From Dictyostelium discoideum (Eukaryota), in contig CM000152.2 of NCBI GenBank assembly GCA_000004695.1, positions 5,088,001 through 5,152,000 on the forward strand: a stretch of 64,000 bases of DNA, in the 5' to 3' direction. Made by a program: the position numbers and the translations under genes. Shown here piece by piece: positions 58,801 through 61,800 of this stretch; positions within the stretch are counted from its first letter, which is position 1, and each line of letters opens with the position of its first letter. The notes below the pieces were generated by a model that searched no databases, had not been told where the DNA came from, and was given only the letters and a program-made list of their open reading frames with translations.

Positions 58801-61800
58801 TTGGGTACAACATATTGGATTAAACATGCTTTAGATTTATTATTAGCAATTTTACCAAATGATAAATTTGTTAAAATTTCAAATTTCTGTTCAAAATTAC
58901 CAACTTCTTTGAAATTTGCTAATCGTAATGGAAATGATATCAACCAACAACAACAACAACAACAACAACAACAACAACAACAACAACAACAACAACAACA
59001 ACAACAACAACAACAACAACAACAACAACAACAACAACAACAACAACAACAACAACAACACCACCAACAAGAACAACCAATGGAAATCGATGAGAATCTA
59101 GTAGTTGAACAATCATCATCGGTGAATAAAGGTAATGAAGAATTTAAAAAATCATTAAAATTACATACTCAATGGTTAGAATCATTAAAAAATGAAGAAT
59201 CATTAAAATTTAGTGAATTTAATGAAAATCTTAGAGAGTTAATTTTTATTGATTCTCATTTAGTTAATGATTTATGGTGTCATCTATTTAGTGATATGTG
59301 GTCAGATTTAACAAAAGAAGAACAATTTAAATTATCAAAATCTTTAACTTTATTATTGTCAAAAGATTATACAAAGAAAGTACCTTTAGTTAGTAAACCT
59401 ATTATACCACCAACTTCAATACCAATTTCAAAACCAATAATAACAACAACAACATCAACATCTTCATCAACTTCTACAACAACACCAATAACAACAATAC
59501 CATTAATTAATAATTCACAATTAATAACTATTGTTACATTAACACAACAACAAACTAATCCAATAATTGTACCATCATTAAGAGAACCAAATGTTATTAA
59601 AACATGGATGGAAACTTTAGGAATGTGTAAACCAATACCAAAGGTACCAATTGAAGTTATTAGTTTTTTGGGTGAAAATTATAATTGTTGGTATTATGCA
59701 ATTAGAATGATTGAACAACAATTAATTGATAGACAAAAACTTTTAGATTCAACCGATATCAATTGGGATTATCTTTCCTATCTTTATGGTGCAATTGGTG
59801 AAAAGGATTTACTTTATGGTATTTATAGAAAGAGATATCAATGTGATGAAACTAAACTTGGTCTATTGTTAGAACAATTTTATATGTTCCAATCTTCACA
59901 AGAGGTATTTTTATCGGCAATGAATAAATATTCAGCGGTAGGATGTAAACCAACACCACGTAGTGAAAATCTATTATGGGAAGATCATTGGTTAGAATGT
60001 GCAAAACGTTTAAATCAATGGAATTTCGTTCACGAATTTTCAAAAGAAAAGAATATGTATGATCTTACGATTGAGTCAGCTTGGAAGATACCACAATGGA
60101 ATTCAGTGAAAGAGAATATGAAGAAAATGATGTCACAAGGTGATACAAGTATTAGAAAAATACTTCAAGGTTATTTCTTAACAAATGAAAAGAGATATCA
60201 TGAAGTTGACCCTGCAATCGTTACCTCTAATCAATTGATTCTCGATAAATGGGTATCATTACCTGAACGTTCTTTCCGTTCTCATACTAATAGTTTGGTG
60301 GAAATGCAACAAGTCGTTGAATTACAAGAATCGGTTCATATCTTAAAAGAAATTAGTAACATCACTCTATCACAACAACCTGCTGATTTAAGTCGTTCAT
60401 TCTTAACTTCCAATTATATAAAATCAATTTTCAATATTTGGCGTGAACGTCTACCAAATAAAGATGAGGATCTATTGATTTGGTTCGAATTAATGGCATG
60501 GAGACAACAAGTATTCAATATCATTGGTACACCATCAATGAATGGTGGTATCGGTGCTAATCCAGTGACACCAACAAATACCACTACCACAATCACAAAT
60601 CCTGACGGTACAACCACTACAACTACAACTCCATTACCACCACCACAACAACCAATCAATCAAATTGAATTTGCTTCACCACGTTATATGGTTTTAGAAA
60701 TGGCATGGACAATGAATAAATACTCTCATATCGTTAGAAAACATAACATCATAGAGGTTTGTTTAAATTCTCTAAGTAAAATGTTTGATCTTCAAATTGA
60801 ACTTCATGATATCTTTTTAAATCTTAAAGAGCAAATTAAATGTTATCTTCAATTACCAACTCATTATGATACGGGTATTTCAATTATCAATAGTACAAAC
60901 CTCGATTTCTTCACTCCAATGCAAAAGGGTGAATTCCTTCAATTGAAAGGTGAATTCTTAAATAGATTAGGTCGTTATGATGAAGCAAATCAATCTTTTG
61001 CCTCCTCTGTAAGTCAATATGAAAACTCGGCAAAGAATTGGATAAGTTGGGCACATTTCTGCGATAATCAATTCACCAATCATAGTAGTAGTTCAATAAC
61101 TCCTTCTTCAACTCCTACCACTTATGATATTAAAACTCAATGGGCTGAATCTGCAATTAGTTGTTATATTCAAGGCATTAAATGTGATCCAAAATATGGT
61201 AGTCGTTATGTTCCAAGAATATTCTGGTTACTTTATCTAAATGGTTCTGGTGAAGTTCCTCAACAAATACAAACTCAACAACAACAACAACAAGCAGCTG
61301 CTCAAGGTGGCTTACCACCACAACCAAGAAAACTAACACCTGCCCAATCTGTATTCCAATCATTCTTAAATTCATGGACTATTCTTCCACAATGGATTTG
61401 GTTAAATTATATGCCTCAATTGATTTCAGGTGCTGCTAATCTTTTAAATTTCCCAGGTTATGGTTTCCTTTGTTGGCAAATGATTGGTAAAATTTGTTAT
61501 TTATTCCCAAATTCTTCATATTATCATTTTAGAAAATTAGTTTTGGAAATGAAATCAAATGCTTCTAAATTTACTACCTCACCACCTACAACAACAACAA
61601 CAGCAACAACAACAACAACAGCAACAACAACAATAACAACAGCTACTACAACCTCAACACCAACTCAAATACAACACCAACTCAAAATACAACTACACCT
61701 ATTAAAGAAGAATCATCTACAACTACTGCAACTACAACACCAGCTGTACCATCAACTTCTACTCCAACTTCTACATCAGCACCAGCTCCAATATCAACAT

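Follow-up and report, generated by a model that had tools for sequence, protein, structure and literature searches.

Dictyostelium discoideum tra1, which encodes TRRAP/Tra1, changes reading frame in the deposited AX4 chromosome at a short near-repeat (61655-61689 of the window, the 64,000-nucleotide stretch of contig CM000152.2 analysed here, in whose coordinates all positions are given). The frame break is real in the deposited sequence, and is most likely a one-base error of the AX4 reference rather than a biological feature. In the reading we favor, to which we give a probability of about 0.72, tra1 in the organism would be one continuous three-exon gene whose linker between the FAT and kinase-like regions carries a real tandem duplication of 18 bp that keeps the frame: CAACACCAACTCAAAATA would stand there twice and encode TPTQNT-TPTQNT. 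The AX4 reference consensus would have lost one A from the A-run of copy 1, leaving AAA at 61667-61669 instead of AAAA, and the missing A would split the conceptual translation into open reading frames 53881..61896 and 61893..63854.

Exact-sequence look-up matched open reading frames of the window to D. discoideum AX4 proteins, including the ZIP transporter EAL66520/XP_640500 and EAL66518, with further exact matches to DDB_G0281917, DDB_G0281925 and DDB_G0281901. GC content, from a composition count, is ~20–30% across the window. tra1 (TRRAP) spans 49846-63854 on the + strand in three exons, with a coding sequence of 13.7 kb, and its start is the annotated start in assembly GCA_054883475.1. 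Exon 3, taken as 53788-63851, measures 10064 nt (2 mod 3). The parts of the gene, and the stop codon that ends the upstream frame, are as follows.

49846..50184, + strand: exon 1, 113 codons from the ATG, read from the sequence
50185..50309, + strand: intron 1, GTAAGT...AG, with a long poly-A run inside
50310..53654, + strand: exon 2, 1115 codons, no stop codons
53655..53787, + strand: intron 2, GTAATT...AG
53788..61669, + strand: exon 3, frame-1 part, with the HEAT ring and FAT domain, followed by the beginning of the Thr-rich linker (from Pfam, PDB matches and the codon-usage change-point)
61670..63854, + strand: exon 3, frame-0 part, with the T/S/P-rich linker, the conserved PLKMTETLS, the kinase-like region, the FATC-like end and the stop codon
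61894..61896, + strand: TGA ending the frame-1 reading, an out-of-frame stop met only through the shift, overlapping the ATG at 61893-61895

The original prediction assigned the gene to TRRAP/Tra1 and placed a T/S/P linker, a kinase-like region and a FATC-like end in the downstream frame, and both assignments stand. In 59002-61893 of the window, Pfam identified PF20206 Tra1_ring (E = 2.2e-18) and PF02259 FAT (E = 1.2e-44), and Tra1/TRRAP structures match on both sides of the break, with a best E of 3.5e-46 for the upstream half. The downstream 761 aa match no Pfam family at E <= 0.01; phmmer aligns them to yeast Tra1 over its kinase region (5y81_B, E = 2e-11) and to related TRRAPs of full length. 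Their place on one polypeptide with FAT hinges on the repair of the break. The product ends in ...NISQLDQLSCPWL, a FATC-like C-terminus (...CPWL) that bears the FATC motif. Relatives end similarly, P0023 in ...NISQMESVSYPWL and P0001, which has a precomputed PF02260 FATC match, in ...QMDAVWQPWL.

The PDB chains matched by D. discoideum tra1 are 5oej_B, 6ig9_T, 5y81_B, 7ktr_A and 8h7g_C. The upstream and downstream halves align, respectively, to residues 311-482 and to 705-830 and 903-1045 of yeast Tra1 (5y81_B), to 3017-3196 and 3673-3821 of 9ynu_A, and to 2358-2506 and 2795-2934 of human TRRAP (7ktr_A). The order of HEAT ring, FAT, kinase-like region and FATC-like C-terminus is the same as in the pseudokinase PIKKs yeast Tra1 (SAGA/NuA4) and human TRRAP. 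At ~4580 aa, D. discoideum Tra1 is longer than Tra1/TRRAP (3744-3859 aa), and it differs from them in its many low-complexity inserts. Among these are tracts rich in Thr, runs of Asn and Gln of ~36-38 or more, and the T/S/P linker of ~110 residues between FAT and the kinase-like region, which holds the break.

The near-repeat consists of copy 1, CAACACCAACTCAAATA (17 nt, 61655..61671, +; read ends …CTCAAATA), and copy 2, CAACACCAACTCAAAATA (18 nt, 61672..61689, +; read ends …CTCAAAATA). Both read as first reported, with the qualification that the copies are not identical: their sole difference is AAA in copy 1 (61667-61669) versus AAAA in copy 2. Open reading frame 53881..61896 lies in frame 1 (coordinate mod 3 = 1) and terminates at the TGA at 61894-61896, and open reading frame 61893..63854 lies in frame 0 (coordinate mod 3 = 0) and opens with the ATG at 61893-61895. 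Frame 0 is open from 61568 and overlaps frame 1 by 329 nt, so the shift is formally possible anywhere within this interval. Past the repeat, frame 1 reads IQHQLKIQLHLLKKNHLQ…, its tail being IQHQLKIQLHLL..., also given as IQHQLKIQLHLLK, and the Thr/Ser/Pro/Ala run passes from frame 1 into frame 0. Across the 13.7-kb coding sequence, the frame changes at 61655-61689 only and no stop codon occurs elsewhere; the break at the repeat is the sole defect in the gene. A single repair yields one open tra1 frame: adding one A gives 4583 codons, and deleting 61655-61671 (−17 nt), which had been said to fuse the two open reading frames and does, gives 4577 codons with this exon model. The junction-spanning peptides of the single-polypeptide reading would be STPTQNTTPTQNT and STPTQNTTPTQNTTTPIK.

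We located the shift by codon usage, using a change-point model in which codon scores were trained on the rest of tra1 and all positions at which frame 1 could give way to frame 0 were compared. Scores included ACA +1.06, CAA +1.25 and CCA +2.11 at the favorable end, and AAC −2.36, CAC −2.41, CTC −3.05 and TAC −3.25 at the other. The maximum, 102.6 bits, fell at 61665, with a peak over 61663-61670 and all of 61662-61676 within ~3 bits. Switching at 61568 or 61640 scored 7.6 and 76 bits, and keeping frame 1 to its stop scored −35.7 bits. The peak at 61663-61670 therefore puts the shift at the 3′ end of copy 1, confirming that the frame changes at the repeat, and its position coincides with the AAA run at 61667-61669. 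Because the scores peak there, frame 0 has evolved as coding sequence for ~75 codons 5′ of the ATG at 61893.

The original prediction named a 17-bp tandem duplication as the cause of the break, and this part is probably wrong. Tandem Repeats Finder reports 61655-61693 at period 17 (2.2 copies, 95% matches, 4% indels, score 71), and the longest exact period-17 run is 15 nt, against maxima of 14 nt in 1000 dinucleotide shuffles and 15 nt in 1000 triplet shuffles of 61568-61896, so the repeat lies at or past the chance limit, the low-complexity stretch notwithstanding. A search of all registers at 61655-61689 found no exact 17-nt tandem, the best identity being 15/17. As deposited, the adjacent copies are not an exact duplication; they become one at period 18, and only after an A is added, when they form an exact in-frame 18-nt tandem that encodes TPTQNT twice, with period-18 identity over 40 nt. 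The missing base is presumably an A of the run 61667-61669.

A second tandem of the same length lies ~50 nt upstream of the repeat.

61588..61623, + strand: neighboring exact 18-nt in-frame tandem, ACAACAACAACAACAGCA twice

The tract 61588-61641 encodes TTTTTA repeats, and a diverged third copy of ACAACAACAACAACAGCA reaches 61641. The exact tandem at 61588-61623 shows 18-nt in-frame duplication to be the local mode of change. In-frame duplications in low-complexity coding tracts of Dictyostelium likewise have an 18-nt period and Thr/Pro/Gln/Asn codons; unlike them, the deposited pair measures 17 + 18 nt and breaks the frame.

These observations bear on the choice of repair. We consider it unlikely that the gene has a single true copy to which faulty assembly or true slippage added a 17-bp duplicate, whose removal would give 4577 codons. 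Such an origin is compatible with the open frame restored by deleting 61655-61671, and codon usage cannot separate it from the loss of an A, since copy 1 would itself have been copied from coding sequence. However, it must explain why no register holds an exact 17-nt tandem, and so needs a second event. Replication slippage makes exact copies, and among the usual Sanger consensus errors we know of none that would insert 17 near-identical bases. In-frame 18-nt indels are, moreover, the local pattern, and the exact 4577-aa protein is absent from the protein collection searched. Because an undercalled A in a homopolymer explains everything in one event and the 17-bp model calls for two, a duplication and an indel, the single added A is more economical. 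On this ground of parsimony, adding one A (4583 codons, TPTQNT twice), rather than removing 17 bp, is probably the correct repair.

Relatives place the two halves in a single chain. Searching 1.84 billion cluster representatives by HMMER, with the frame-0 product as query, brought up the full-length relatives P0022 (4177 aa, 55% identity), P0024 (3984 aa), P0025 (4108 aa) and P0023 (2351 aa), each matched at the relative's C-terminus. P0022 is the D. purpureum protein (scaffold GL871026.1), whose gene has an upstream WW/C2 neighbor in common with D. discoideum. We aligned the junction in P0022, P0023 and P0025, leaving out P0024, in which the anchor motif was not found. All three read through unbroken, following …GYGFLCWQM…YYHFR(K/R)LV…-linker-PL(K/M)MA(E/D)(T/S)LS…H(S/A)(C/A)LINEI…. 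In D. discoideum, YYHFRKLV lies in frame 1 and PLKMTETLS in frame 0, so that the conserved PLK falls 5′ of the supposed restart ATG; the motif common to tra1 and its relatives can be summarized as PLKM(A/T)E(T/S)LS. In D. purpureum DNA, a single open reading frame (L004 12837..20324) takes in the FAT domain, the linker and PLKMADSLS. Judged from these translations, both halves of tra1 form one polypeptide in the relatives.

Two further searches addressed the junction. A masked junction query against a protein word index returned three distant JGI fragments only, with no TRRAP longer than 1104 aa, among indexed proteins that include those of Dictyostelium; very long proteins may be absent from that index. 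A metagenome scan with the 35-mer just 3′ of the repeat gave no match.

The D. purpureum gene has an intron of 72 nt (L004 20310-20381, GTAAGT...AG) after ...ITDSFN, 55 codons 3′ of PLKM. D. discoideum tra1 is without an intron at that position; an intron has been gained or lost between these species. The permease downstream of D. purpureum tra1 was considered as a guide to the D. discoideum neighbor and rejected, its match being a paralogue cluster on another chromosome.

Could the cell bridge or exploit the break? A programmed −1 ribosomal frameshift, or two polypeptides with a restart at the ATGA at 61893-61896, would make use of the 329-nt frame overlap and of the frame-1 stop that overlaps an in-frame ATG, an arrangement resembling bacterial-style coupling. 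We regard this as extremely improbable. No in-frame X_XXY_YYZ slippery heptamer occurs within 61560-61895, in agreement with the earlier judgment that translational recoding is unlikely, and the related proteins lack such a break, so the shift is not conserved. Against a restart, PLK conservation and codon usage reach 5′ of the ATG in frame 0, and because they do, the ATGA overlap is best read as a coincidence. Reinitiation after a 3930-codon open reading frame is not expected in eukaryotes. An AX4 Tra1 split into a 3930-aa HEAT/FAT protein and a separate 653-aa pseudokinase-FATC piece started from the ATGA would be a natural two-piece PIKK, and there is next to no chance that AX4 has one. A bridging spliceosomal intron was also considered, by the criteria of GT...AG ends, AT-richness, a length of 60-250 nt and a length of 2 mod 3. 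It was rejected: the frame-bridging GT...AG pairs are all at least 125 nt and consist of coding-like linker sequence.

The break could instead be a mutation of the sequenced strain: the AX4 clone would truly have lost 1 nt from the A-run, and Tra1 would be truncated after the FAT domain. The deposited chromosome does carry the frameshift, deletions within homopolymers occur commonly, and a very recent one would also fit the frame-0 coding signal 5′ of the ATG. We nevertheless think such a mutation improbable. Both the pseudokinase and the FATC form an integral part of the Tra1 fold, and AX4, a haploid strain, shows normal growth. Natural variants of the gene are strictly frame-preserving, and the same-lineage assembly GCA_054883475.1 has a single 4567-aa product not derivable from the window sequence (both set out below). 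In the relevant passages of Goldberg et al. 2006 (PLoS Genet 2:e38, PMC1420674), moreover, genome-sequence error is blamed, after inspection of reads and ESTs.

Those passages describe how, where a frameshift or stop blocked the best gene model, individual genome reads and ESTs were inspected, and TRRAP is among the sequences corrected in this way. Errors of the 2005 AX4 genome consensus corrected from reads and ESTs affected pXi, PakC, DNAPK and TRRAP (PMC1420674). Table S2 lists DDB0229338c TRRAP tra1, the suffix 'c' denoting a model from corrected genomic DNA, and the first ~480 residues of the window's tra1 are identical to that entry (Goldberg 2006 Table S2, PMC1420674). The case before us matches those errors in gene and in class of problem, a frameshift blocking the best model. 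The paper gives no position or nature for the TRRAP correction; since tra1 has only one break, we infer that the published correction concerns 61655-61689. The correction and the model flagged 'c' make an assembly or sequencing artefact, one of the origins first proposed, the best reading, and we class it as a known or ordinary error, a consensus artefact probably already noted in 2006 (PMC1420674). No literature was found under DDB_G0281947, Q54T85 or TRA1_DICDI.

Three other D. discoideum assemblies annotate tra1 as one product each, of 4567 aa (GCA_054883475.1), 4531 aa (GCA_054859385.1) and 4540 aa (GCA_054859355.1); the 3930 + 653 split is absent from the annotation in 3/3. Our sequence comparison covers the first 6.4 kb of tra1, to window position 56302, which is short of the break. 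In that part, GCA_054883475.1, which is of the same lineage as the window, has 0 substitutions relative to it, and elsewhere mostly homopolymer-length differences. GCA_054859385.1 and GCA_054859355.1, labelled D. discoideum, differ from AX4 by ~2.7% substitutions in tra1. In these two, the length of every exonic indel in the first 6.4 kb (36/36) is divisible by 3, with sizes of 3, 6, 9, 12, 15, 18, 24, 42, 69 and 81 nt. Three are of 18 nt (at 50657, 50798 and 54091), and the 69- and 81-nt ones are deletions, relative to AX4, in the Asn run 53431-53552. Intronic tra1 indels are not multiples of 3 (4, 7, 16, 17, 21 and 25 nt among others). Since all exonic indels keep the frame and the intronic ones do not, selection holds tra1 in frame.

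The 4567 aa of GCA_054883475.1 match neither 4583 (+A) nor 4577 (−17 nt), and no canonical intron could be placed on the window sequence to yield them. Hence, that assembly either differs from the window within 56303-63854 or uses a model that cannot be reconstructed; we take its product as suggestive of a sequence difference in that interval. Pure codon runs occur in tra1, ~36 Asn at 53445-53552 and at least 38 Gln codons (CAA/CAG) at 58945-59058, where 42 Q were counted by eye in the translation, and these runs probably give rise to length differences between assemblies, of which the 4567-aa product would be an example. Exact look-up in the protein collection found neither the 4583-aa (+A) nor the 4577-aa (−17 nt) protein, nor any of five 4582-aa variants with a 2-nt skip, and the 653-aa downstream open reading frame is not on record there. 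UniProt Q54T85 is presumably 4582 aa long, a length that would suit a 2-nt artificial gap in the tra1 model.

The deposited AX4 chromosome still carries the frame break in a tra1 of 4.6 thousand codons, and ORF-based or automated annotation will split or distort the gene. The value of the correction is mainly housekeeping, with no new biology implied. The combination of codon-usage change-point, repeat-copy comparison and inter-strain frame-preserving indels is a reusable recipe for telling consensus error from pseudogene in low-complexity coding DNA.

The comparison with GCA_054883475.1 also surfaced a dense cluster of differences in AT-rich intergenic sequence at 46811-47358, with ~20 substitutions plus small indels. 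The other ~21 kb compared hold only two substitutions and three homopolymer-length differences, and the cluster resembles a stretch of low sequence quality in one or the other assembly. The poly-A run of tra1 intron 1 (50190-50232) is shorter in all three other assemblies, by 6, 6+16 and 18+16 nt, and GCA_054883475.1 likewise has shorter poly-A/T runs at 36276, 43891, 47044 and 47310.
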